Of a DNA stretch of 64,000 nucleotides, positions 3,369 to 45,912 are shown one piece after another (the stretch's first letter is position 1; each line of letters begins with the position of its first letter). The notes under the pieces were generated by a model. The model made no database searches. It had not been told where the DNA came from and saw nothing but the letters and a program-made list of their open reading frames with translations. This DNA is from Gammaproteobacteria bacterium (GTDB lineage: Bacteria > Pseudomonadota > Gammaproteobacteria > UBA4575): the NCBI GenBank assembly GCA_965221955.1, contig CBDCTA010000022.1:1-64000 (forward strand), in the 5' to 3' direction. The translations under genes and the position numbers were made by a program.

Positions 3369-4526
3369 ATGTCGACGACACGTGTTTTTACTTCGGAATC
3401 TGTTTCTGAAGGTCACCCAGATAAAATGGCGGATCAAGTATCAGACGCCATTCTTGATGCAATTTTAGAACAAGACACGAATGCCCGTGTAGCCTGTGAG
3501 ACAATGGTTAAAACGGGCATGGTGGTACTTGCCGGTGAAATCACCACCTCAGCACAAATTGAATATGAAAAAATTGTGCGCGATACAGTGAATGGCATTG
3601 GCTACGATAATTCTGATGTAGGTTTCGATGGCCATAACTGTGCCGTGCTTAATGCACTTGGCAAACAATCTCCGGATATTGCTCAAGGTGTAGATCGCAA
3701 GTCAAAAGAAGAGCAAGGAGCCGGCGACCAAGGCATGATGTTTGGTTATGCAAGCAATGAAACAGATGTGCTGATGCCCGCACCCATTACTTACTCACAT
3801 CGCTTAGTTCAAAAACAATCTGAAGTTAGAAAAGCAGGTACATTAAGATGGTTGCGCCCTGATGCAAAAAGCCAAATTACTTTTGTCTATGAAGATGGCA
3901 AACCCACTAGCATTAACGCAGTAGTGTTATCTACACAGCATGATCCTGACATAAGTCAAAGTGATTTACATGAAGCGGTGATGGAACATATTATTAAACC
4001 TACTTTGCCAGAGAAGTGGTTATCTAAAGATACAAAATATCACATCAATCCTACAGGTAAGTTTGAAATTGGTGGGCCAGTCGGTGATTGTGGATTAACA
4101 GGACGCAAGATTATTGTAGACACCTATGGCGGCATGGCAAGACATGGCGGTGGAGCTTTCTCAGGTAAAGATCCTTCTAAAGTAGATCGTTCTGCAGCTT
4201 ATGCAGGGCGTTATGTAGCAAAAAATGTTGTAGCCGCGGGTTTGGCGGAACGTTGCGAGATTCAGATTTCTTATGCCATCGGTGTAGCTCAGCCTACCTC
4301 TGTATCTATCGATACATTTGGAACAGGAAAAATTGCCGATAATAAAATCGAAGATATTGTACAAGATGTATTTGATTTACGTCCTTATGGAATTGTTACG
4401 ATGCTTGATTTATTACATCCAATTTATCAGGCTACTGCGGCTTATGGACATTTTGGCCGTGATGAATCTAGCTTCCATTGGGAACGCACAGATAAAGCTG
4501 CTGAATTAAAAGATCGCGCATCTTAA
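3369..4526 (+). CDS. metK: S-adenosylmethionine synthetase
   Basis: [19 protein letters not shown] and GGGAFSGKD signatures. Confidence 0.98.
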
Positions 4527-13386: not shown

Positions 13387-14697
13387 TTATGACGCTTCTC
13401 GGTTTTCTATCACGGTATCCTCAATCGATTGAGGTAGCTTGAAGCCCGCCACCGAACGCTTAAGTTCTTGGCCAAGATTTTTCAACTTGCCCACCCAACT
13501 TGCGGTATTACTTGCGCTATCCGAAGTTTGCATGGTGATTTCTTGAATCACATTCATCGTTTTCGAAACATTTCCCGCAGCGATGGTTTGCTTTTCAGCT
13601 GCATCGGTAATATTTTGAATCAGTGCTGCTAAGTTATCCGATACAGATTCGATCTCTACCAATGCTTCGCCAGCATTCTCTGCAAGCCTCGCACCACTTA
13701 CCACGTTAGAAGTACTTTGCTCCATAGAAATAACAGCTTCATTCGTATCACTTTGAATGGTTTTGACCAATGCCTCAATTTGCTTGGTTGCCGTACCCGC
13801 ACGTTCCGCGAGTCGTTGCACTTCATCTGCAACCACAGCAAAACCTCTACCTGCTTCACCTGCAGTGGAGGCTTGAATCGCTGCATTCAATGCAAGAATA
13901 TTAGTTTGATCAGCAATCTCATCAATCAAACCAACGATGTCACCAATTTCCTGTGAGCTTTCACCCAGTCTTTTAATTCGTTTCGAAGTTTCTTGAATTT
14001 GTTCACGAATAGTATCCATACCATCAATGGTACGACTTACTGCTTGTGCACCTTTATGCGCAATGTTTACAGATTGCTGCGCTACATCAGCAGAACTTTT
14101 AGCATGATCTGAAACTTGTTCGATTGATTTAGCCATTTCGGAAACAGCAGAAGTTACATTGGCAATTTCACGTGCTTGTTTTTCACTGGACGTAGTAAGT
14201 TTTTGAGTTGAGTCGTGCGTTACGTCTGCAGCCGAAGCAACTTGTTTAGACGTATTGTTAATCGTGTTTACAAGATTACGTAATGCATCAATAGAGTAAT
14301 TTACGGAATCTGCTATCGCGCCGGTAATATCTTCCGTAACCGTGGTGTGCACGGTTAAGTCACCTTCTGCAAGATTTGTCATTTCGTCAAGCAATAACAA
14401 AATCGCTTGCTGGTTACGACGATTTTGTTCGTCTACTGCTGCGAGCTGGTGTTTAACTTTACCTCCCCATTTATTTACGAATACGAGCAATACAATTAGA
14501 CATGCCATACCGGAAATAAAAACCGCTGCAGAGAAGATACTATTGCTTGTACTAAAGCCTGCTAACTTTCCTAAATCAAACGCTAGAATTGCCATTGCAC
14601 CCATAACTAAAAATGCTAACAGCGCCATTATGGTCAGAGCGGATTTGCTAGATTGACTTTCCTTGTCTGCACGAGCAATTGATTTTGTTAAGGCCAT
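13387..14697 (-). CDS. pilJ: Methyl-accepting chemotaxis protein PilJ (short form)
   Basis: [14 protein letters not shown] and [13 protein letters not shown]...[17 protein letters not shown]; position within the pil-chp cluster. Confidence 0.9.
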
Positions 14698-15005
14698 AAT
14701 TCAAGTATTCCTAATTTCTAACTAAATTCGATACAAGTGATGGTTTTGATATACAAATATCTTTTATTAAATTCTGTGTATTGATAACGGGCATAAAAAT
14801 TTTCAAATCAGTAAATACCCACCAGAAATCAATAATTTCCAGACACTAATGATACGTGTGAATGGCATCCCTAAAGGCATTGCTGTGTCGTGAAAATACT
14901 CACTTTTATCGGTTAAAAAGACGGGCTTCGAATAACCATTAAACAGCTTGCCTATGATCAGCAAGCAGCTAGCAAACAAATGGAATTACACCTGAAAACT
15001 TAGCT

Positions 15006-22432: not shown

Positions 22433-23302
22433 CTGAATTCTCATCGCGGAACAATTTTTGAAGAAACTGCCAACGTCATCCATCAAGAAGCACTCGCTGC
22501 AGAACAATATTTTCTAACGCTATATGCGCCCAAGTGCGCACAACACGCACGTGCTGGAAATTTTGTGCATCTACAATGCGATGTTCAACTTGGTATGCGT
22601 CGACCCTACTCTATTATGCGTGCTGATGAAAATACTGGGCAAATTGATATTCTTTACAAAGTCGTTGGCACAGGCAGTTCCTACTTAGCTACGCGAAAAC
22701 CTGGCGACATGATTCAATGTTTAGGCCCTATTGGTAATCAATTCATTTTAAGTGAAAATACAACGCATCCATTATTGTTGGGTGGTGGTGTAGGGATACC
22801 ACCGATGATATTTTTTGCAAATGAGCTAAAAACACAAACAGATATTCATCCGTTCGTGATCATGGGTTCTGAAATCCCTTTCCCATTTACAGCAAAGCCT
22901 TCAAAGATAGTCGTGCAAAATATTGCAAGCGATGTCATTGCTGCAATGCCATTGCTTGATGATTGGGGCATCGCATCACGCTTAACCAGTCAACAAGGCT
23001 ACCAAGGCTGTTACCAAGGTTTTGTACATGAACTTGCCGAACAATGGGTACAAGGATTAGATGAACAAACTAAAAAGGGTGTAGAAGTGTTTTCCTGCGG
23101 CCCTACTCCAATGCTACAAGCAGTTGCAGTCTTTGCCAAAAAATATTCACTACCTTGCCAGCTTTCTTTAGAGGAACACATGGCTTGCGCAGTCGGCGGA
23201 TGCGCAGGATGTGTAGTACCTTATAAAGAAAATGATAAAGTTACTGCTATGAAACGCGTCTGTGTTGATGGACCCATTTTTAATGCAGAAAATATTTATT
23301 AG
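22433..23302 (+). CDS. pyrK: Dihydroorotate dehydrogenase electron transfer subunit
   Basis: RRPYS, GGGVGIPP, CGPTPM, MACAVGGCAGC..RVCVDGP. Frame is open from 22421; CTG 22433 after AAAGGA proposed as start. Confidence 0.85.
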   Translation: MNSHRGTIFEETANVIHQEALAAEQYFLTLYAPKCAQHARAGNFVHLQCDVQLGMRRPYSIMRADENTGQIDILYKVVGTGSSYLATRKPGDMIQCLGPIGNQFILSENTTHPLLLGGGVGIPPMIFFANELKTQTDIHPFVIMGSEIPFPFTAKPSKIVVQNIASDVIAAMPLLDDWGIASRLTSQQGYQGCYQGFVHELAEQWVQGLDEQTKKGVEVFSCGPTPMLQAVAVFAKKYSLPCQLSLEEHMACAVGGCAGCVVPYKENDKVTAMKRVCVDGPIFNAENIY

Positions 23303-23438
23303 TGAGTACATAGATGTACTAGCACTGGAAATTCAGGATGGAAGATTTACAGTGAGTCCGAATAAGAGTTGCAACAAGGAAGTTGCTTTATATCAAAGAT
23401 TTCTCTATTTTAAATTGTATGCTTTATTAGACACCTCT

Positions 23439-23975
23439 TTAATTAAGCTTATCTTCCACCCCGATCGTGTGCGGCCGCCCACTAATTATATTCTCAACCA
23501 TACTACCTAAGGTTATCAACAAATCCTTTTCACTATACGTAAATCTCCTCGGCTCAGTATCTATTAAACAAAGTGTGCCAATATTTTTTCCTGTGGAACA
23601 CAAAACGTAACCGATATAAAACCGAACCCAAGGCTCACCAATCACGAGCGGATTGTCTGAGAAACGAAGATCTTGATACGTGTCTGGAATTTCAAAAATA
23701 CGTGAACTTTTAATACGAACGCCAGCATTAAGAATGGCATGCGCGCAAAAAGATGAAGCGCGAGGAGTTTCTGAGATTTCTAAACCTTGTACAGATTTAA
23801 ACCACTGTCGCTTTGCATCGACTAAGCTCACTAAACAAATGGGAATACTTAAATGCTGACAAGCAAAACGCGTTATGCAATCAAAACGTTCATCTGGCTG
23901 AGTATCGAGAATATTCAGCGAATACAATACTTGTAAACGCAGGAATTCATCTTTCGGAATAGGTGCAATTTGCAT
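23439..23975 (-). CDS. Stand-alone GAF domain protein
   Basis: LNILDTQPDERFD, SLVDAKRQWFKS, SFCAHAI, IGTLCLID. Confidence 0.85.
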   Translation of the reverse strand: MQIAPIPKDEFLRLQVLYSLNILDTQPDERFDCITRFACQHLSIPICLVSLVDAKRQWFKSVQGLEISETPRASSFCAHAILNAGVRIKSSRIFEIPDTYQDLRFSDNPLVIGEPWVRFYIGYVLCSTGKNIGTLCLIDTEPRRFTYSEKDLLITLGSMVENIISGRPHTIGVEDKLN

Positions 23976-24050
23976 CGGTTTATTCTATTCACAAGCAAAG
24001 CTCCTGTCTCATAACTATGCTCAAGGGAGTAAATTCAAAATAATTTATGG

Positions 24051-24111
24051 GTGAGCGCATGGATGCGCGAATATGAGTAACAACAGGGATGTTGTTACAG
24101 ATTAAAGTTAG
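24051..24111 (+). repeat. 61-bp double-hairpin element, forward copy L1
   Basis: GTGAGCGCATGGATGCGCGAATATGAG...ACAGATTAAAGTTAG; similar to copies at 39520 and 45729 and to the reverse copies. Confidence 0.85.
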
Positions 24112-24122
24112 GTGAGCTTGAT

Positions 24123-24152
24123 TATGTCTGCTTTCGGCCAATAGCGGTCATT
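24123..24152 (+). repeat. 30-bp palindromic cassette-boundary site (spacer TCGGCCAA)
   Basis: TATGTCTGCTT-TCGGCCAA-TAGCGGTCATT. Confidence 0.85.
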
Positions 24153-24179
24153 CAATATAATGAGCCAACAACGTAATAC

Positions 24180-24680
24180 TTAGTAAATGGGGATAAGCGC
24201 ATAGCCTTGTTTTTGATACCCAATTAACGACACAAAGGTATTACCCACAGGTTTGACCTCAGAAATAATTGTGTCATTGTCAATATTGAGCAGTCTTGCT
24301 GCTATTGAACACGATTCCATTTTTATTCCTGGTTTTTTACTAAATTTTACCAATAACTCTAAAACTTCCTCATGCGCCTCTTCTTCATCCAGTGCTAAAT
24401 CAGGTGACTCTGTGGTAATGAGTTTCATAACAGGGCCGTGAAAGGCAAAAACCATATCTGGTTTAACGTTCTGACGCTCGAGGTCATCATATGTTTCTTC
24501 GATTACTTTTAACATCAATAAAAGCTTTTTAGGATTACCGACAGTAACATCCCAAATCACTTTGCCTTCATTGATTTCACCTAATGCATCAGCATCTGAT
24601 GGTTTTTCAGCATTCACTAAACTTAATGTGAGAAGACTCAGGACACCAATAAAGATAATGATTCTATGTTTTGTATACAT
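24180..24680 (-). CDS. Secreted DsrE-family protein
   Basis: Signal peptide; VIWDV, VFAFHGP, ESCSIAA, VGNTFVSLIGYQKQGYALIP. Confidence 0.75.
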   Translation of the reverse strand: MYTKHRIIIFIGVLSLLTLSLVNAEKPSDADALGEINEGKVIWDVTVGNPKKLLLMLKVIEETYDDLERQNVKPDMVFAFHGPVMKLITTESPDLALDEEEAHEEVLELLVKFSKKPGIKMESCSIAARLLNIDNDTIISEVKPVGNTFVSLIGYQKQGYALIPIY

Positions 24681-24710
24681 AATTCTTACTCCTATTTTGA
24701 TATGTATATG

Positions 24711-24811
24711 AATGTCCGCTTAGATTCGTAAGCAGTTATTTTAAGTTTGTAAAACTTTGAATCCAATCAACTGAGTCCGATTTTATGTCTTTTCAGCCAT
24801 AAGCGGATGTT
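24711..24811 (+). repeat. Pair of degenerate cassette-boundary sites (24711-24740 and 24784-24811)
   Basis: AATGTCCGCTT-AGATTCGT-AAGCAGTTATT and TATGTC..TTT-TCAGCCAT-AAGCGGATGTT. Confidence 0.7.
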
Positions 24812-24864
24812 TGCATGTTTTTGTTGGATGATAAATGATATTTTCAGATATAGGATCTAAATAT

Positions 24865-25491
24865 ATGAGTGACAATTGTTGCCAAGGCGATATTAATGTT
24901 GCAGCTTTGAACAAGAAACAACGACGTATTTTAGTTATTGTACTTGTTATCAATGTAATAACATTTCTGATGATGATAACTGCTGCAAGAATAAGTGGTT
25001 CTTCATCTTTGCTGTCTGGTGCATTAGACAATTTCGGTGATGCAATGACGTATCTAATTAGTTTGTTTGTTGTTGGGGCAAGTGTCGCAGCCAAAGCCCG
25101 AGTAGCTTTGTTTAAAGGTTTATTGATCCTAGGGGCTGCTCTAGCTGTTGCCTTTGCGATTGTCTCACGATTGCTGCATCCTGATACACCTATATTTGAA
25201 TCAATGGGTATTGCTGCATTTCTAAATTTAGCGGCTAATTTACTATGTTTGTGGCTACTAACTCCTTATCGTAATGGTGATGTAAACATGGCCTCTGCAT
25301 GGGAGTGTTCACGTAATGATGTAAGTGAAGGACTAGCTGTTATTGTCGCGGCAATTGCGGTATGGATGTTTGAATCTGGTTGGCCAGATTTAGTGATTGC
25401 AATCAGCCTCTTGATTTTGTTTTCACGTTCAGCAGTTCATGTACTACGTAATGCATGGCAAGAACTTTATTCAACTACGATGCAGAACTAA
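24865..25491 (+). CDS. Cation diffusion facilitator-like transporter (short form)
   Basis: SSSLLSGALDNFGDA, WECSRND, WPDL; ATG 24865 after TAGGA. Confidence 0.8.
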   Translation: MSDNCCQGDINVAALNKKQRRILVIVLVINVITFLMMITAARISGSSSLLSGALDNFGDAMTYLISLFVVGASVAAKARVALFKGLLILGAALAVAFAIVSRLLHPDTPIFESMGIAAFLNLAANLLCLWLLTPYRNGDVNMASAWECSRNDVSEGLAVIVAAIAVWMFESGWPDLVIAISLLILFSRSAVHVLRNAWQELYSTTMQN

Positions 25492-25494
25492 CAT

Positions 25495-25617
25495 AATGTC
25501 CGCTTTGGGTCGTTAACGATCATTTTAGTAAACAAGATGTTAAATCAGAAGCAACTTCCATGTTGCAACTCGTATTCGCATATCCTGTGCTCACACTTTG
25601 GATCGGTAGCAGACATT
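25495..25617. repeat. Boundary site (25495-25524), reverse 61-bp-type element (~25540-25594) and half site (25596-25617)
   Basis: AATGTCCGCTT-TGGGTCGT-TAACGATCATT; reverse complement GTGAGCACAGGATATGCGAATACGAG...; CTT-TGGATCGG-TAGCAGACATT. Confidence 0.8.
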
Positions 25618-25673
25618 CTAATACAAGAAAAAATTTGAAAAAACATTCGCAGACTTGCGAATATAAAAAAGAA

Positions 25674-27017
25674 TCATTGATCCCCAAACACTGATTTCAA
25701 ACGATCTAGATACCCATCATCCTTGCCTTCTTCTTCATCAAGAATAGATTGCTCTGGTTCAACGGAGGCATTTTCACCTGACATATCTGTATCTAAAACA
25801 TCAGCATCTTCTAATCCAAAGTGGCTATCCAGTGTGGCTTCATCGTCCTCTATGGCCTTAGACAAAGTAGGTTGTACTCCACTGCCATTTGCTTTCTCTT
25901 TAACTGGCTCTTCGGATGGGAAGACTAGCTGATCACTGGTTTCACTAACACTTTTAACACCACCACCAAAATTGATTTGCCATTCAAGATTACCGCGAGA
26001 ATCAGCATTACTTAACGCATCATCAAGAGAAATTCTTTCACTCTTATATAAATCATACAATGATTGGTCAAAGGTTTGCATTCCCGCCGCTGCACCTTTT
26101 TCCATAATCGCTTTTATTTCACCCACATCGCCACGTTTAATTAACTCAGAAATATAAGGCGTGTTAATCATTACTTCTACCGCAGGGACTCGGCCGCCAT
26201 CAACGCTAGGAATCAAACGTTGTGAAATAATGCCGCGCAAGTTCAAAGATAAATCCATTAAGATTTGTGATTTACCTTCAGGCGGGAAAAAATTAATGAT
26301 ACGATCTAATGCTTGGTTAGAGTTCACCGCGTGCAAAGTGGTTAAACAAAGATGACCAGTATCCGCATAGGTAATCGCCGCTTCCATGGTTTGCTTATCA
26401 CGCACCTCACCAATCATGATCAAGTCGGGTGCTTCACGCATGGCTTCACGAAGAGCATTTTCATACGAGAGTGTGTCTAAACCTACTTCGCGTTGACCAA
26501 TAATAGATTTCTTATGACTGAAGGCGTATTCGATAGGATCTTCAATAGTAAGTATATGTCCAGTTTGTTCAATGTTGCGATGCTCGATCATTGAAGCCAA
26601 TGAAGTCGATTTACCTGAACCTGTTGAACCAACAACAAGCACCAAACCATTTTTTTGCATCACCAATTTTTTAAGAATGGGTGGTAAACCCAAATCTTCT
26701 AATTCAGGAACATCACCTTTGATGTAACGAATTACCATAGAAATTTCGCCACGTTGATAATATACGTTGACACGGAAACGACCCGCGCCAGCAACTGAAA
26801 TACCAAGGTTCATTTCCTTAGTCATTTCAAATTCTCGAACTTGTTGCTCATCCATGATGCTGTAAGCGATTTTCTTCACAACACCTGGTTCTAGAATATT
26901 ACGACTTACACGGCGCGTAACACCCTCAACTTTCGTGCAAACGGGTGCACCTGTTGTAAAAAACAGGTCAGAAGCATTTTGCTCCACCATCAGTTTTAGA
27001 TATGGATCTATGTTCAT
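25674..27017 (-). CDS. PilT/PilU family ATPase (second PilU-like copy, acidic tail)
   Basis: GSTGSGKST, TIEDPIE, GEVRD, TGHLCLTTLH, GMQTFDQ. Confidence 0.9.
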   Translation of the reverse strand: MNIDPYLKLMVEQNASDLFFTTGAPVCTKVEGVTRRVSRNILEPGVVKKIAYSIMDEQQVREFEMTKEMNLGISVAGAGRFRVNVYYQRGEISMVIRYIKGDVPELEDLGLPPILKKLVMQKNGLVLVVGSTGSGKSTSLASMIEHRNIEQTGHILTIEDPIEYAFSHKKSIIGQREVGLDTLSYENALREAMREAPDLIMIGEVRDKQTMEAAITYADTGHLCLTTLHAVNSNQALDRIINFFPPEGKSQILMDLSLNLRGIISQRLIPSVDGGRVPAVEVMINTPYISELIKRGDVGEIKAIMEKGAAAGMQTFDQSLYDLYKSERISLDDALSNADSRGNLEWQINFGGGVKSVSETSDQLVFPSEEPVKEKANGSGVQPTLSKAIEDDEATLDSHFGLEDADVLDTDMSGENASVEPEQSILDEEEGKDDGYLDRLKSVFGDQ

Positions 27018-38382: not shown

Positions 38383-39405
38383 TTAAACACTCCAGTTTTG
38401 TAAAACGATTTTACCAATCGTATGTCGCCCTTCAATTTCAGCATGTGCAGCTTTTAAATTTGCAGCATTAATTGGTTCTAGTACTTTATTTGTTGTCGTT
38501 TTAATCGTGCCGGCATCTACAAGTTCAGCTACACGATTTAATATATTATGTTGTTCAATCATATCATCAGTTTCATACATAGAACGTGTGAACATGAACT
38601 CCCATGAGAATGTAGCACTCTTACTCTTCAATGCACCTAAATCTACATCACCCGCAGTTTCTACGATGGAACAAATTTTACCTTGTGGCTTAATCACGGT
38701 AGCGATCGATTGCCAATGCTCATCCGTATCATTGAAACATAAAACATAATCGTATCCTTCTATACTTAGTTCCTGAACCTGCTCGGGAATATCAAGATAA
38801 TGATTGATGATATGATCCACACCTAAATCTTTACACCATTTTTTCGACTCGGGACGTGAAGCGGTAACTGTGATAGAAAGTTTTGTCAGTTGTTTGGCAA
38901 ATTGAGTAGCTACAGAGCCCACCCCTCCTGCACCACCTATAATGAGTAATTCCTTGCCTGCATCTTCATTACCTTGGCTAATTTCCAAACGATCAAACAT
39001 TGACTCCCATGCCGTAATACTGGTCAGCGGCATGGCAGCAGCTTGCGCAAAATCTAAGGACTTCGGTTTATTACCTACAATGCGCTCATCCACAATATGA
39101 AATTCGCTATTGCATCCAGGCTGTATAAAACTACCCGCATAAAAAACCTCATCACCTGCTTTAAACAGAGTGACATCAGGCCCAACTGCTTCAACCACCC
39201 CCGCAGCATCCCAGCCCAAAATTCTTGGACTTTCCTCAACCTTATCCTGTGGTGCCCGCATTTTTGTATCGACCGGATTCACCGCAACGGCGCGCACAGC
39301 AACCAATAACTCTTGCCCTTGTGGGCTGGGTTGGTCGATCTCAACATCAACCAAAGAATCCGGTGCATCAATAGGAAGGTATTTATATAAGCCAACTGCT
39401 TTCAA
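38383..39405 (-). CDS. Zinc-binding alcohol dehydrogenase / quinone oxidoreductase family protein
   Basis: VNPVDTK, LGWDAAG, GGAGGVGS, WEFMFTR. Confidence 0.9.
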   Translation of the reverse strand: MKAVGLYKYLPIDAPDSLVDVEIDQPSPQGQELLVAVRAVAVNPVDTKMRAPQDKVEESPRILGWDAAGVVEAVGPDVTLFKAGDEVFYAGSFIQPGCNSEFHIVDERIVGNKPKSLDFAQAAAMPLTSITAWESMFDRLEISQGNEDAGKELLIIGGAGGVGSVATQFAKQLTKLSITVTASRPESKKWCKDLGVDHIINHYLDIPEQVQELSIEGYDYVLCFNDTDEHWQSIATVIKPQGKICSIVETAGDVDLGALKSKSATFSWEFMFTRSMYETDDMIEQHNILNRVAELVDAGTIKTTTNKVLEPINAANLKAAHAEIEGRHTIGKIVLQNWSV

Positions 39406-39519
39406 GATTGGTCTCCAGGTTATTTATGTAAGTGTGTTTACGGCAGATCCGTATTATTCCATATAAATCGCGTCTATCGTGCTGACAGAATACTTTTTAA
39501 CCATTAAATTAATATTATA

Positions 39520-39580
39520 GTGAGCGCAGGGATGCGCGAATATAAGGTCCATCAGGGATGATGCAACAGAGTAAAGTTAA
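39520..39580 (+). repeat. 61-bp double-hairpin element, forward copy L2
   Basis: GTGAGCGCAGGGATGCGCGAATATAAGGTCCATCAGGGATGATGCAACAGAGTAAAGTTAA. Confidence 0.85.
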
Positions 39581-39628
39581 ATATACTCAAAAAATGAACA
39601 ATTTTAAAAGTCCTAACCTGGTCTCAAA

Positions 39629-39658
39629 AATGACCGCTTTTGGCCAATAGCGGTCATT
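39629..39658 (+). repeat. 30-bp cassette-boundary site
   Basis: AATGACCGCTT-TTGGCCAA-TAGCGGTCATT; contains the stop codon of the adjacent minus-strand gene. Confidence 0.9.
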
Positions 39659-40064
39659 CTTCATTCTCAACAATCTCTTCCGAGACACCCATTGTCCTAA
39701 TAAATAAAAGAAATATTACGATTGCTGCAAAACTTCGTGAAAATATTTGACCAAAACTAATAAACTCTGAAATAAATATGAGCAGCACCAATATGCAACT
39801 GGCTATAGACCAAATTGGCGCATAGTTAAGAATTTTCCATTTAGACCTATCTTCATTTATATCACTAAAATAGTGTATACATAATATCAACGCCAAGGAC
39901 ATGACTGTGATAATCACTAGACTAAAAACAGTTCTGTTACTTGATACAATAATGTAAATCCAAAGAGGGATAGAATAACTTATGCTTTTATAAAAATTTG
40001 TATCTACAAGTTCAGATATTTTTTGGCCTTTTTTGGTAAATAAAAACAAATCTTTAAAGTTCAT
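39654..40064 (-). CDS. Hypothetical membrane protein (cassette-like)
   Basis: 136 aa, about four hydrophobic segments, very AT-rich. Confidence 0.65.
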   Translation of the reverse strand: MNFKDLFLFTKKGQKISELVDTNFYKSISYSIPLWIYIIVSSNRTVFSLVIITVMSLALILCIHYFSDINEDRSKWKILNYAPIWSIASCILVLLIFISEFISFGQIFSRSFAAIVIFLLFIRTMGVSEEIVENEE

Positions 40065-40088
40065 TTTTCCATAGCGCCTGTAAAATAT

Positions 40089-40201
40089 TATGTCCGCTTT
40101 GGGTTGTTAGCAGACATTTTGAACGTTTGTTTTGAAGTTTCCAACCTGACTTCCCCTAAATTGATCTTAATTTTGTCCGCTTTCGGCCAATAGCGGACAT
40201 T
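40089..40201 (+). repeat. Pair of cassette-boundary sites (40089-40118 and 40172-40201)
   Basis: TATGTCCGCTT-TGGGTTGT-TAGCAGACATT, then a CCAACCTG linker, then TTTGTCCGCTT-TCGGCCAA-TAGCGGACATT. Confidence 0.9.
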
Positions 40202-40593
40202 TAATTACTTAATAAATCATCCATTTTATTCCAAGCTTCATTCTTAGAATAATTCTCCCTATCACATTTTTCAGCAGTGTTTTCATCAACCTCTAAATTA
40301 TCAATTAATTTATTTGTAAGACAAACTGGATCAATAACCTCTTTCCCTTTTTCTCTTTGATCTAAAACAAATTTAGATTCAACTGTAATGCAATGGTTAA
40401 TCGCCAGCATAAATGTTTCCTCACAGCTATTTTTAGACACTTCCCAACAAGCAAGCAGGTCATTATTTCCACATAATAATTCACTTATGTGAGTTTCATA
40501 AAATATTTGTGATTCACTTTTTTTGTCATCTGAACAAGAAGCTAGTAGAACTGCTGCAAAGATATAAATTAATATAATGAGATAGTTGGACAT
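40201..40593 (-). CDS. Hypothetical cysteine-containing lipoprotein (cassette-like)
   Basis: Lipobox LLASC; six further Cys residues. Confidence 0.7.
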   Translation of the reverse strand: MSNYLIILIYIFAAVLLASCSDDKKSESQIFYETHISELLCGNNDLLACWEVSKNSCEETFMLAINHCITVESKFVLDQREKGKEVIDPVCLTNKLIDNLEVDENTAEKCDRENYSKNEAWNKMDDLLSN

Positions 40594-40610
40594 AAATGTA
40601 TTACGGTGTG

Positions 40611-40772
40611 AATGTCCGCTTTGGGTCGTTAGCGGTCATTTTAATGATCTGATTTGTATTACCCAACCTGCTCATTATTCAAGTCTATCTAACTTTAATC
40701 TGTTGCATCGTCCTTGATGAAACTCATATTCGCGCATCCATACGCTTACACTTTGAGTTGTAAGCAGTCATG
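40611..40772. repeat. Boundary site (40611-40640), reverse 61-bp element (40689-40749) and half site (40751-40772)
   Basis: AATGTCCGCTT-TGGGTCGT-TAGCGGTCATT; reverse complement GTAAGCGTATGGATGCGCGAATATGAG...; CTT-TGAGTTGT-AAGCAGTCATG. Confidence 0.88.
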
Positions 40773-40824
40773 CGAAGCTTATAACAGAGAACTAATGTAG
40801 ATACGTAATGTTATTATTTAGCTC

Positions 40825-41211
40825 TTATAATTGCTCTATCACTTTCTTTAGTTTTTCTTGCACTTGATTCGCAATATCCCCTAATTTAGCATTCTCAATC
40901 GCGCGCATAGAGGCAATTGGGTCTACAGCTGAAACTTCTATCTCGCCATCATTCGTTTCTTGAACAACTACGTTGCATGGCAACATAGTTCCTATTTTAT
41001 TTTCTGCTTGCAGTGCTTGATATGCAAACGGTGGGTTGCATGCACCTAAGATACGATAGTTTTTATAGTCAACGTCCAACTTCTTTTTCAAAGTTGCTTT
41101 TACATCAATGTCTGTTAACACACCAAATCCTTCTTTTTTCAACTCCTCCGTAACCTTTTCTACAGCTTCGTCGAATGGAATTTTCATTTTGGTACTAAAG
41201 TAATAGTTCAT
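40825..41211 (-). CDS. DUF302 domain protein
   Basis: EGFGVLTDIDVKATLKKK, YRILGACNP, MLPCNVVV. Confidence 0.9.
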   Translation of the reverse strand: MNYYFSTKMKIPFDEAVEKVTEELKKEGFGVLTDIDVKATLKKKLDVDYKNYRILGACNPPFAYQALQAENKIGTMLPCNVVVQETNDGEIEVSAVDPIASMRAIENAKLGDIANQVQEKLKKVIEQL

Positions 41212-41242
41212 ATTATTCCTCTATTAAAGTAATTGTTTATGA

Positions 41243-41369
41243 AATGTCTGCTTTGGGCCGACAGGAATTTACTCCTCGGCATTTGTTCCATGCATTGCCC
41301 TACCTCCTACATCCATGTAGTCGTGCAATTTCTGCACTTCCACCCTCCATGGTAGTCGTAGCAGTCATT
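41243..41369 (+). repeat. Boundary site split by a ~97-bp insertion
   Basis: AATGTCTGCTT-TGGGCCGA [insert 41262-41358] TAGCAGTCATT. Confidence 0.75.
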
Positions 41370-41417
41370 TTAAAGATCTGATATGAAGCTCCCAACCTGC
41401 ACATTTTTTAATTATAA

Positions 41418-41478
41418 CTAACTTTAGTCAGTTGCATCGTCTCTGATGGTCCTCATATTCGTACATCCATACGCTCAC
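41418..41478 (-). repeat. 61-bp double-hairpin element, reverse copy
   Basis: Reverse complement GTGAGCGTATGGATGTACGAATATGAGGACCATCAGAGACGATGCAACTGACTAAAGTTAG. Confidence 0.85.
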
Positions 41479-42515
41479 AACTTATCTAATTCAATCTCCG
41501 CAACAGGTATTCCATGATCAGACATAGTGCGATCGGCTTCTCTCGCTGTTAACGACCAATCAAACAAATGATCATTAAATATATGTTGGTAGGTTACTTT
41601 TCCAATACGTTTGGAGTTGCGATGATAAAACTCTTGCGATACTAGAATATGGTCCAACACATCACGATTTCCTCGATGTATATGTGTATAACCAAAGTCT
41701 TTTAAATCTTGACGTGTTTGAATGGTATTCGTGCTATACAACAGCACATCCCAATACATCCGTTTTATTTTAGTTGGCCAACGAAAATGAGGCGCTTGGC
41801 CAGCAATTATTTGAGTACTTGTGCTTTCGACAATGTCATTCAAGTCTCCAAGGACAATGAGTGGTTGTTGGTTATCTTTTATATCTTCAACAACTTTAGC
41901 ACGTAATGCTGTCGCTTCTAAGCTACGAATGAGTTGTGCACGTAAAGAGCCCAGTGCACGGTGTATGGGGTTTTCTCGATCTTCACTTTCTTTATAAATC
42001 GGACGTTTTGATTTTAAATGTGCGACATAAACGACAATCTTGATATCTTCCTCAGGAATTAACACTTCTGCACGTAGCGGAGGACGTTCAAATTTTTCGA
42101 TAGGCACATCGATCAGTTGCTCTGTTCCATCCGGAGCTTTGCTAGGTATTTGAAAATCTGCAGTAGATGGAAATTTTTCGATGGATTCATGACGCAAAAT
42201 TTGAAAGCGTGTGGCCAAACCTACTTTTGGACGTAATGCTTTACCATCTTCTTCATTATTTTCACGCTCTGCACCTGGGGATAAAACTTGAGTGTGTTCC
42301 GGAAAATTTTTCGCTTTTCTTATTGCAGCCTCAAGACTTTCACTACTAAACACTTCTTGAAAACCGACAATATCAGGCTGCGCTTGATCCAGCATATGTG
42401 CAGTCCATTTAAGTTTTCGCTCATACTCCTGTTCTGTAAAGGGAGGTAACTCGTAGTAGCCAACCTGCGGCCGCACTAAATTAAGGAGATTAAAAGAAGA
42501 AACTCGAAATTCCAT
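41475..42515 (-). CDS. Endonuclease/exonuclease/phosphatase family protein
   Basis: SFNLLNL, GFQEV, HLKSKR, LGDLND, LDHILVS, SDHG. Confidence 0.9.
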   Translation of the reverse strand: MEFRVSSFNLLNLVRPQVGYYELPPFTEQEYERKLKWTAHMLDQAQPDIVGFQEVFSSESLEAAIRKAKNFPEHTQVLSPGAERENNEEDGKALRPKVGLATRFQILRHESIEKFPSTADFQIPSKAPDGTEQLIDVPIEKFERPPLRAEVLIPEEDIKIVVYVAHLKSKRPIYKESEDRENPIHRALGSLRAQLIRSLEATALRAKVVEDIKDNQQPLIVLGDLNDIVESTSTQIIAGQAPHFRWPTKIKRMYWDVLLYSTNTIQTRQDLKDFGYTHIHRGNRDVLDHILVSQEFYHRNSKRIGKVTYQHIFNDHLFDWSLTAREADRTMSDHGIPVAEIELDKL

Positions 42516-44898: not shown

Positions 44899-45732
44899 GT
44901 GAAAACCAAAAATATTCAAAATGTGTTTTTTATTTCAGATAGCACAGGGATTACCATTGAATCACTAGGGCATTCTTTATTCACACAGTTTCCTAAGTTT
45001 ACATTTGAAAAAGAAGTTTTCCCATTTGTCACCGATAAAGAAGATGCTGAAAAAGTGATCTCACGCATAAAAAAAGTAGCATCGAATTCTCAAAGCAAAC
45101 CTATCGTATTTACTAGTTTAGCTGACGAAAAACTGAAAAGTTTATTCATATCTAATGGCATAACCGTATTCGATATTTTTTCAACATTTATCCCCGACAT
45201 CGAGTCACACTTAGGCACCCATGCATCTCATGCTATAGGCGAAACACATGGCGTGGGTAGTACATCCGGTTATCTACAACGTATTGATGCACTAAATTTT
45301 GCATTAAGCCACGACGATGGTATGAAGATTAATGATATCGAACATGCTGATATTATTTTAACGGGTGTATCTCGCAGTGGGAAAACCCCTACTTGCCTAT
45401 ACCTCGCTATGCACTACAACTTAAAAGCAGCCAACTACCCTCTTACCGACTCAGATTTTGATAATCCTTTTTTACCTGAAATATTAAGCAAGGTACAGGA
45501 ACGAGTATTTGGTTTAACCATATCCCCACAACAATTAAATAAAATTAGAGAAGAGCGAAAACCTGATAGTCAATATGCATCCTACGAACAGTGTGTTTTT
45601 GAAATAGAAAAAGCAGAAACGATGTTTAATAATTCAGGATTAGATTTTATTAACACCTCAGCTGTTTCTATTGAGGAAATTGCAACTACAATAATCCAAC
45701 ATATGGACTTAAAACCACAAGGAAAATGGTGA
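44899..45732 (+). CDS. ppsR: PEP synthase regulatory protein
   Basis: ISDSTGIT, HDDG, GVSRSGKTPT, AANYPL; divergent from ppsA. Confidence 0.95.
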   Translation: MKTKNIQNVFFISDSTGITIESLGHSLFTQFPKFTFEKEVFPFVTDKEDAEKVISRIKKVASNSQSKPIVFTSLADEKLKSLFISNGITVFDIFSTFIPDIESHLGTHASHAIGETHGVGSTSGYLQRIDALNFALSHDDGMKINDIEHADIILTGVSRSGKTPTCLYLAMHYNLKAANYPLTDSDFDNPFLPEILSKVQERVFGLTISPQQLNKIREERKPDSQYASYEQCVFEIEKAETMFNNSGLDFINTSAVSIEEIATTIIQHMDLKPQGKW

Positions 45733-45912
45733 GCATAGGGACATGCGAATATGAGTTACAACAGGGATGTTGTATCAGGTTAGAGTTAGGGAATTTTAAA
45801 AACGTCCGCCGCTTTCTGTGAATAGCAGTCTTTATTGAATATTCTTAAATTTGAAATCCCCAACTTGAACTTAGTCAAACCACCAAACTTTAATCTGTTA
45901 CTTCATCCATGC
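45729..45912. repeat. Forward 61-bp element (45729-45789), degenerate site (~45804-45833) and partial reverse element (~45886-45912)
   Basis: GTGAGCATAGGGACATGCGAATATGAG...; CCGCTT-TCTGTGAA-TAGCAGTC; AACTTTAATCTGTTA. Confidence 0.75.

Follow-up and report, generated by a model that had tools for sequence, protein, structure and literature searches.

What are the ~30-bp palindromes that separate small, unrelated genes at positions 39520-41478 of the DNA stretch presented above, and do they delimit genes that move? The stretch (here called the window; all 64,000 nucleotides, positions 1-64000 of contig C22) belongs to a metagenome-assembled genome (MAG), G000, of 2.69 Mb in 29 contigs with ~38.5% G+C, a completeness of 96.6% and a contamination of 4.3%. 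A sequence-only reading of this DNA had proposed an integron-analogous array of gene cassettes. We find that the palindromes occupy gene boundaries according to a positional rule that holds genome-wide, that the genes between them differ among strains and species with breakpoints inside the palindromes, and that the sites operate independently of the integron integrase IntI and its attC sites. The genes are very likely mobile cassettes with the palindromic sites as their limits. Our preferred reading goes further, to an integrase-independent cassette system that recombines at the palindromes only, with heterospecific spacer classes and a dedicated enzyme yet to be found; we think this slightly likelier to be right than wrong.

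Organization of the islet

The interval singled out earlier, 39520-41478, spans exactly from one copy of a repeated module, here called T, to another. Its parts are as follows.

39520-39590, plus strand: T module that opens the islet on the left; its core, 39520-39546 GTGAGCGCAGGGATGCGCGAATATAAG, is followed by another small hairpin and CAGAGTAAAGTTA
39629-39658: A-class 11-8-11 site, spacer TTGGCCAA; no mismatches; overlaps the TGA stop of gene 1
39654-40064, minus strand: cassette gene 1; hydrophobic product of 136 aa without a Pfam or NCBIfam match
40089-40118: B-class site, spacer TGGGTTGT; one mismatch; 24 nt upstream of the gene 1 start
40116-40144, minus strand: promoter-like linker element; TTGGAA at 40144-40139, 17-nt spacer, CAAAAT at 40121-40116, abutting the B site
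40172-40201: A-class site, spacer TCGGCCAA; two mismatches; abuts the gene 2 stop codon
40201-40593, minus strand: cassette gene 2; 130 aa; signal-peptide/lipobox-like N-terminus; no Pfam or NCBIfam match
40611-40640: B-class site, spacer TGGGTCGT; no mismatches; 17 nt upstream of the gene 2 start
40680-40750, minus strand: T module inside the islet; core 40723-40749; opposite in orientation to the T at 39520
40751-40772, minus strand: half B site; left arm and spacer ...CAACTCAAAG, fused directly to T
40825-41211, minus strand: cassette gene 3, DUF302; 128 aa; PF03625, 95 bits; B site 31 nt before the start
41243-41369, minus strand: split B-class site; arms 41243-41260 and 41359-41369 with an X module of ~95 nt between them
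41367-41395, minus strand: promoter-like linker element; TTGGGA, 17 nt, TAAAAT; 9/12 in the promoter scan
41452-41479, minus strand: T module that closes the islet on the right; the TGA stop (41475-41477) of the flanking gene comes from its GTGAG

The half site and the split site reported earlier are both visible in the sequence, and the three minus-strand genes are present. The DUF302 assignment of gene 3 is borne out by its profile match; the labels 'membrane protein' and 'lipoprotein' given to genes 1 and 2 find no family match and rest only on a hydrophobic and a Cys-containing N-terminus. Two kinds of element had been missed, namely the T modules at the ends of the islet and the X module lying within the site at 41243. 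The left T module is part of a 140-nt inverted repeat with 40610-40749 (74% identity).

The right-hand T also reaches into its neighbor. The flanking gene (41475-42515, minus strand) encodes an EEP-family protein whose stop codon comes from the GTGAG terminus of the module; in G008, a genome of the same genus that lacks the islet, the end of the protein is different (...EIELEE against ...EIELDKL).

Palindromic sites follow a positional rule

The window was scanned with the consensus AATGWCYGCTT-N8-TAGCRGWCATT, allowing up to three mismatches, and compared with 100 shuffles. Twelve strand-matches at seven loci were found, against a shuffle mean of 0.01, and none of the shuffles reached twelve. 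Four of the loci (39629, 40089, 40172 and 40611) are those reported earlier, a report that was correct and understated; the others are at 24123, 24711 and 25495, and the site occurs at 157 loci in the genome. With a looser arm pattern, used for the genome-wide cluster count, 182 sites fall into 55 clusters: 23 single sites, 16 pairs, and larger groupings that include arrays of up to 23-24 sites.

The sites have 11-nt arms and a spacer of 8-10 nt, giving a length of ~30 bp, and they come in two classes. The A class, with spacer T(C/T)GGCCAA, lies at stop codons, and the B class, with spacer TGGGT(C/T)GT, lies before start codons. The two positional classes recognized in the islet, with A at the stops of genes 1 and 2 and B 24, 17 and 31 nt before the three starts, thus express a genome-wide rule. 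In arrays such as C5 675-6309 and C23 10824-23376 the small genes share one orientation, and behind each of them come an A site, a linker of 45-55 nt and a B site, with the next start codon ~8-44 nt beyond. Among 61 B-to-A intervals, 42 hold one open reading frame (ORF) on the same strand, 5 hold an ORF on the opposite strand and 14 have other content; the median distances are 28.5 nt from B site to start and 5.5 nt from stop to A site, and in 10 of the 42 same-strand intervals the stop codon is a TGA within the A arm. The products are of ordinary accessory kinds; classified by eye except for seven with Pfam matches, they include secreted proteins, lipoproteins and peptidase-like, GNAT-like, PPK2-like, Hsp20-like, CDF and DUF302 proteins; no recombinase-like product was seen among the cassette proteins inspected.

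The arms are unequally conserved. Across 49 A-linker-B units from G000 and related genomes (MECHANISTICALLY), the arms next to the gene hardly vary—the A left arm has C in 45 of 49, the B right arm G in 47 and A in 47—and the linker-proximal arms are polymorphic and frequently mismatched with their partners. No pairing covariation was detected in these units, either for two local hairpins or for a long-range fold. One strong and one weak arm fit a double-stranded protein-binding site better than a selected stem, and the site is putatively assigned that role on three grounds: one arm is conserved, the other is polymorphic, and covariation is absent. As single-stranded DNA the unit has as its minimum-energy fold one long imperfect hairpin (-18 kcal/mol, z -4.3), again without covariation. 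This fold is similar to that of attC, and a folded strand may therefore also be the substrate.

Other roles were considered for the repeat. The arm motif occurs 321 times in the genome and is not over-represented outside the sites; with so few occurrences a role as an uptake signal was rejected. Rfam gave no match at gathering scores in the window, and at E<=1 only noise in 39400-41600. Six-frame translation does yield ORFs that start within the palindromes (MSALGRKRTF..., MSALGRQEF... and ...CPLWVVSGH...; L184-L187 of G066, and window 40586-40717 and 41244-41381), and these are artefacts of the ATG present in the arm. The sites probably seed spurious 'hypothetical proteins' in annotations, where we presume such entries to be widespread.

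Cassette turnover between strains and species

Several contigs of G000 are 90-99.8% identical in pairs over 1-11 kb (C14/C23, C10/C29, C11/C26, C1/C25, C12/C13, C18/C8, C19/C3 and C24/C6). Given these near-identical pairs we regard the assembly as a mix of closely related strains, and copy numbers in it are therefore inflated; xerD, for example, is present twice.

C14 and C23 are two versions of one locus, with flanks 99.0-99.5% identical. The arrays measure ~2.5 kb and 11 kb, respectively. C14 has one extra cassette of 1,035 bp, together with ~1.5 kb where C23 has 11 kb, and all of the homology breakpoints are at palindromes. At junction 1 the crossover maps to the border of the spacer GGCCAA(A/T) with the right arm, and at junction 3 the same arms enclose a loop that is inverted from one version to the other. 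C10 and C29 form a second pair of this kind: identity in the flanks is 98.7-99.7%, and the arrays, of 1.4 kb in one and 4 kb in the other, have no cassette in common. A third comparison defines the portable unit: C11 2700-3057 and C5 25760-26117 are 96.9% identical, the limits of the match lying 0-1 nt from the outer edges of the hairpins and the homology starting in the loop of the left hairpin and stopping at the outer edge of the right one, and the upstream context is B site and linker in one copy and a T module in the other. Since homology is limited to the hairpins and what lies between them, the unit runs from hairpin to hairpin and the linker is left behind.

Differences between species follow the same boundaries. 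G008 lacks the whole islet 39520-41479 and has ~37 bp in its place, with the adh flank continuing up to window position 39517 and the EEP-gene flank from 41485; G007 and G015 have unrelated genes and no hairpins at this position. Homologues of gene 3 are cassettes at other places in G006 and G007. Two genes from a second islet in the window (described below) indicate gene capture. The DsrE-like gene at 24180-24680 has a B site upstream and an A site downstream in four different neighborhoods (G000, G007, G011 and G012), yet in G018 and G019 it has an ArsR-like neighbor and no hairpins around it, and the CDF gene moves with the same site pair through five genomes. In public sequencing runs containing the stretch (contigs only, labelled marine metagenome or with a coded organism), all joints have sides of 18-34 nt, which correspond to other repeat copies.

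The proposal of modular cassettes delimited by palindromes is therefore upheld: the sites are tied to gene boundaries, gene content differs among strains and relatives, and the breakpoints lie inside the sites. The likeness to an integron array survives in part, in that the modularity stands; a unit that extends from hairpin to hairpin without its linker does not fit, and is closer to the dif modules of Acinetobacter.

Turnover of this kind might also be produced without a dedicated enzyme. The main rival explanation is that the palindromes are mosaic repeats of the repetitive extragenic palindrome (REP)/bacterial interspersed mosaic element (BIME) type, or like miniature inverted-repeat transposable elements (MITEs). 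Palindromes, linker, T and X would then act as expression punctuation (hairpins that terminate transcription or stabilize mRNA, a promoter, perhaps an operator) building up around accessory genes, the cassettes being shuffled between the repeats by host homologous recombination or replication template-switching, perhaps after DNA uptake. The build of the unit agrees with this, two inverted palindromes around a spacer being also the format of REPINs (paired REP elements) and BIMEs; same-class sites are near-identical over 30 bp, close to the RecA minimum; and 23 of the 55 clusters consist of a single site. The pattern of exchange is harder to accommodate. Linkers are repeated as well as palindromes, and recombination between units of 100 nt should often cross over in the linkers, yet cassette homology stops at the palindromes; the inverted loop at junction 3 is likewise not easily explained. 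The uptake component is weakened in that the arm motif is not over-represented outside the sites, and a selected RNA or DNA stem by the absence of compensatory changes and the frequent mismatches of the inner arms. Taking these together with the evidence given in the next sections, we consider the repeat-and-host-recombination explanation rather unlikely.

Linkers and the T and X modules

A-linker-B units (n=32) have lengths of 89, 103 or 113 nt and can be aligned to one consensus, which starts with AATGTCCGCT and ends with AGCGGACATT. The common linker motif noticed earlier is real and reads CCAACCTG. Each linker also contains two hexamers, TTGGAA and (T/C)AAAAT, that are each ~90% conserved and stand 17 nt apart, the spacing being constant in length and variable in sequence; the second hexamer abuts the B site. 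The sequence-only reading had seen almost no room for a promoter and had likened the genes to promoter-poor integron cassettes, and on both counts it needs correction, as upstream of every B site the linker contains a conserved element that resembles a promoter. The linker may be a sigma-70-like promoter aimed at the downstream gene, judging by the conserved hexamers, and the element suggests that each cassette is probably expressed on its own. The copy at 40116-40144 has a consensus score of 8/12 and was unflagged by the promoter scan.

A promoter-like linker would also suit expression punctuation by REP/BIME-like repeats, as would the T-run that follows the A site at 39629 on the gene strand. 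One linker subfamily contains AATCAATAAATTA, which fits what we take to be the consensus for IHF binding and counts on the same side.

The T module (GTGAGCGCATGGATGCGCGAATATGAG, then a second small hairpin) has 36 copies in G000, and inverted T modules cap both arrays and islets. Its first hairpin has compensatory changes at three stem positions, with 134 of 150 cells paired compared with 112.8 +/- 2.7 in shuffles (0/1000 shuffles as high), and this covariation makes it probable that T functions as a folded strand. As a rule T is fused, directly past the loop, to a site or to a second T module (...GACCCAAAGT/GTGAG and ...GGCCAATTA/GTGAG, the slash marking the joint), and the junction of the half B site in the islet, ...CCAAAGT/GTGAG, is also present at other loci. 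These joints are not products of homology; that they lack homology, keep one fixed position past the spacer and have differing left halves speaks against host homologous recombination as the source of the arrangement. The X module, ~95 nt long, is found inside B-site loops, with other copies at, for example, C23 10663 and C22 168308.

The small hairpins of T and X in the islet (39520-39590, 40680-40750, 41261-41358 and 41400-41479) all have loops of the form CA[T/G/A]GGATG. As RNA this would resemble what we assume to be the CsrA/RsmA consensus, GGA in a hairpin loop. With T present in both orientations at the islet, any RNA role of T and X could apply to one islet end at most.

Taxonomic distribution

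Sixty-one relatives of G000 were used for comparison, and 17 genomes with at least 28 hairpins are referred to as hairpin-rich. The hairpin is present in 13 of 14 other genomes of the same genus, in 28-184 copies. Four sister genera have 14-175 copies and four other genera of the family 0-2, while the remaining families of the class are almost devoid of it; a control with the pattern reversed found nothing in any genome scanned.

Further afield, the exact B-site 22-mer is found in at least 107 stretches from Gamma-, Beta- and Alphaproteobacteria, Nitrospina, Gemmatimonadales and Anaerolineales, and complete A-linker-B units are also present in records of Arenicellales and Gemmatimonadales. In the Xanthomonadales-type cultured isolate Noviluteimonas lactosilytica A6, accessory genes are punctuated by 23 sites, and a Gemmatimonadales MAG carries 16; both spacer classes are represented in each. 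The site was in none of 2.9 million viral contigs and none of 72,556 plasmids, and a phage or plasmid vehicle was accordingly rejected.

Because the arms and both spacer classes are kept across phyla, a conserved trans-acting partner or a shared cassette pool is indicated. The same conservation tells against mosaic repeats of the REP type, which are lineage-specific. We tentatively suggest, as a proposal that is somewhat more likely to fail than to hold, that the sites form a cross-phylum gene-cassette platform parallel to integrons, with heterospecific 11-8-11 sites, a recombinase or structure-specific nuclease family yet to be found, portable promoters and T-capped ends. Searches of the literature with the site sequence and descriptive terms found no description of such a system, with subscription journals and supplements outside their coverage and an earlier description possible; the matches to site sequence strings were unrelated primers.

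Integrons in the clade do not use the palindromes

Five recombinase families (IntI, Y1, IS66, DDE_Tnp_1 and Transposase_mut) were profiled across the relatives, and IS110, rve and RT were sought in G000 only. The best G000 protein for IntI (TIGR02249) scores 83 bits against a cutoff of 265. IntI is above the cutoff in 10 of the 61 relatives and in only one of the 17 hairpin-rich genomes (G020), and it is present in G018, the sole genome of the genus without hairpins. The arrays adjacent to intI in G020, G018 and G033 contain no hairpins and no T modules, from which it follows that true integrons coexist with the palindrome system and differ from it. attC sites begin with the motif R'' RYYYAAC (5') and finish with R' GTTRRRY (3'), and the G020 array has canonical ends of this type (ACATAAC...GTTAGAT, ATCTAAC... 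and ...GTTAAGC) despite 110 hairpins elsewhere in that genome.

These observations bear on the possibility that the system is a diverged integron, in which the A-linker-B units would be unusual attC sites and the arrays would be clusters of attC sites lacking integrases (CALINs), derived from a lost or trans-acting IntI. The co-oriented small accessory genes in arrays are what such an origin predicts, and so are the single-stranded fold, with its pairing of outer with outer and inner with inner arms, and the conserved, R-like outer arms beside variable, L-like inner ones. IntI does exist in the clade, and CALINs are common, half of them being in genomes without IntI (PMC4889954). Yet IntI is missing from 16 of the 17 hairpin-rich genomes, the units have no AAC/GTT boxes at their ends, the linker does not move with the gene, and turnover is seen between ~99%-identical strains in a genome without IntI. 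The direct tests disfavor the diverged-integron explanation, which is already largely refuted and in our estimation highly improbable.

Search for a recombinase

Tyrosine and serine recombinases are present in G000, in the form of XerD, a presumed XerC, a phage-type integrase and a prophage serine recombinase. XerD is an equivalog above cutoff, duplicated by the C14/C23 assembly variants, and the tyrosine-recombinase match at C22:143093 is taken as XerC. The 431-aa phage-type integrase and the 540-aa serine recombinase, which lies beside a terminase, look like prophage or island enzymes by their neighbors.

XerC and XerD are the only tyrosine recombinases common to the carriers examined, which raises the possibility of Xer-dependent modules, with the chromosomal enzymes recombining the palindromes as dif-like sites, as has been proposed for the pdif modules of Acinetobacter. 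The architecture mirrors that of dif modules as described in PMC13141974 (alternating orientation, one conserved and one variable arm, spacer classes). The largest G000 array starts ~0.6 kb from xerD, and in two more genomes xerD is less than 8 kb from a site; adjacency is absent in four other carriers, and a functional link on this basis was rejected. The sites themselves argue against Xer. A canonical dif-like site is present at C4:59807-59834 (minus strand; ACTTCGCATAA-TATATA-TTATGTTAAAT, with a perfect XerD arm), probably marking the chromosome terminus, and the hairpin arms match its arms at only ~3-4 of 11 positions. The spacers are of 8-10 nt rather than 6, the two arms are near-complements, suggesting a homodimer, and matches at the level of XerC/D are also found in hairpin-free relatives. 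Comparison with the ends of intI-adjacent arrays and with the host dif-like site thus agrees with the earlier statement that the palindromes are neither attC nor dif, and the direct tests leave Xer-dependent modules improbable.

None of the other families searched for provides a candidate. Y1/RAYT proteins (REP-associated transposases; PF01797) are absent from G000 and found in 2 of the 17 hairpin-rich genomes. IS91/Y2 gave no match, with the control also silent in all 14 genomes searched. Neither rve nor RT is present in G000. An IS110 DEDD enzyme was not found in G000 either, and hairpin targeting of the IS110/seekRNA type was rejected on that ground. T starts with GTAAGCG, which we took to be an IS66 end motif and which prompted a search for the IS66 DDE transposase; none was found in G000 or in any of the 17 hairpin-rich genomes, and DDE_Tnp_1 is in one of the 17 and Transposase_mut in none. 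A MITE or IS66-type transposon for the T-bounded islets was rejected as well: inverted T ends are present, but no duplication is seen at the flanks and none of the transposase families profiled tracks the hairpins.

The sequence-only reading had taken the enzyme to be encoded elsewhere, an expectation that the searches of G000 leave without a candidate. Repeats of the REP/BIME type shuffled by host recombination would account for the missing enzyme, and the lack of any family that tracks the repeats, in a bacterial family that is transposase-poor, is a point in favor of that explanation.

Proposed mechanism

The integrase-independent cassette system that we prefer would work as follows. A module would be a small accessory gene between a B site before its start and an A site at its stop. 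Recombination restricted to the palindromes would add, remove, invert and exchange modules, the crossover lying near the boundary between spacer and conserved arm. The two spacer classes would be heterospecific sites, comparable to lox variants or to dif-module sites that need matching spacers, so that spacers would enforce partner choice. A promoter in the 45-55-nt linker would fire through the B site, each cassette being expressed on its own, and inverted T modules, joined to a site just past its spacer, would cap arrays and islets. We infer that a dedicated site- or structure-specific enzyme catalyzes the exchange; it may be a tyrosine recombinase.

Several results weigh against this scheme, and its enzymology is the weak part. 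No catalyst was found in G000 among IntI, Y1/RAYT, IS110, IS66, rve and RT, none of the five profiled families tracks the hairpins across the relatives, and no recombinase recurs near the site at the 107 loci listed, which are from diverse taxa. The crossover map depends on few informative nucleotides, and with same-class sites so nearly identical, recombination of the RecA type within sites is compatible with the data. The strain variants come from one MAG and are co-assembled strains, not a pedigree. The islet ends are without a target-site duplication, and no clean reconstructed target was seen. Finally, the promoter scan flags one unit in the region and gives 12 hits in total against 9.1 +/- 3.4 in shuffles; with a total not above chance, the promoter is deduced from conservation.

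A second islet and other features of the window

The loci at 24123-25495 belong to a second islet of the same build, at a position that is a variable hotspot across the genus.

24051-25620: second islet; T module 24051-24077, A site 24123, site 24711, B site 25495
24180-24680, minus strand: DsrE-like gene
24835-25491, plus strand: CDF gene
~25569-25595: inverted T module at the right end
25596-25620: half B site at the right end

Fragments of the same elements lie elsewhere. At 45729-45840 there is an additional T module (6 mismatches) followed by a degenerate hairpin, which may be a decayed islet end. A T-like start, TGAGTACATAGATGTAC, is at 23301-23330 immediately after the stop of the gene at 22565-23302, and the orthologous intergenic spaces of G013, G012, G010 and G019 contain T-like, X-like and hairpin fragments. 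Within the hotspot orthologous to window ~23300-25680, two species have kept an intergenic element of ~200 nt (…CATTGCATCACGCTGAGAAGCG…GGTGAGCCGCCAAATT…CCCAGCGACAA; G012:C93 ~14440-14750 and G010:C125 ~3690-4050). This CATTGCATCACGCTGAGAAGCG-type element has no relation to the hairpin family; it could be a small RNA or a repeat of another kind.

The window opens, at the contig start, with a perfect tandem array (1-1926; period 339 bp or 113 codons, 5.7 copies, 100% identical). Possible explanations are a gene for a repeat protein and, this being the contig end, a collapse or expansion of the assembly.

Comparison with known systems

Integrons are the textbook route of gene capture and the dif modules of Acinetobacter a second, plasmid-borne one; a third system, if true, would broaden the known routes, and its conserved 30-bp site would be a concrete target for finding a new DNA-recombination enzyme. 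A natural enzyme with a heterospecific site set could serve as a tool, as in engineered cassette exchange. For marine MAGs, the sites break assemblies, generate spurious ORFs and mark hypervariable accessory-gene hotspots.

Engineered cassette exchange with heterospecific lox sites has the same format of inverted arms around an asymmetric 8-bp spacer, and two spacer classes flanking a gene would, as with those sites, favor exchange over excision. That exchange is an engineered use of Cre, and no Cre-like enzyme was found in G000. The Correia elements and intergenic mosaic elements (NIMEs) of Neisseria are also units of ~100-150 bp; they end in inverted repeats, contain an IHF-like site and have promoters directed outward, and the N8-spaced repeats of the dRS3 type in that genus are recombination targets. 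Their sequences are unrelated to the palindromes described here, and we know of no case in which they package exchangeable gene arrays.

REPINs and the BIMEs of Escherichia coli share with the present units the two inverted palindromes around a spacer, the mosaic of short modules, the extragenic location and the presence of tens to hundreds of copies. The palindromes differ in being conserved across phyla, tied to gene boundaries and the limits of moving units. There is no RAYT in 15 of the 17 carriers, and the ends are without the GTAG/CGTC tag given for REPINs in PMC3733652.

Integrons and CALINs resemble the system in their arrays of co-oriented, tightly packed small accessory genes between imperfect palindromic units, in strain-variable content, and in a unit that may fold as a long imperfect hairpin, with conserved outer and variable inner boxes. 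The differences are that 16 of 17 carriers have no IntI, that the palindromes lack RYYYAAC/GTTRRRY ends, and that each half-site forms an 11-8-11 palindrome of its own. Every cassette here comes with a promoter-like element, and whereas an integron cassette carries the whole attC, here the linker stays behind. True integrons of the same clade do not use these palindromes.

The dif modules of Acinetobacter are the closest in architecture. Inversely oriented sites of ~28-30 bp bracket genes there too (PMC13141974 and PMC6449649), with one arm conserved and one variable; in pdif sites the XerD arm is conserved and the XerC arm variable (PMC13141974). Shared as well are alternating modules, spacer classes, and inversions, deletions and single-module replacements with crossovers in the sites. 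In contrast, the arms described here are unrelated to the host dif and the spacer has 8-10 nt rather than 6; the sites are chromosomal, with up to 184 per genome, and were not found in the 72,556 plasmid records; and tiny promoter-bearing linkers alternate with gene modules, in several phyla. The palindrome system thus shares neither enzymes nor sites with integrons or dif modules. Should an enzyme family of a new kind stand behind it, the system would form a category of its own; its closest known relatives are integrons in function and Acinetobacter dif modules in architecture.

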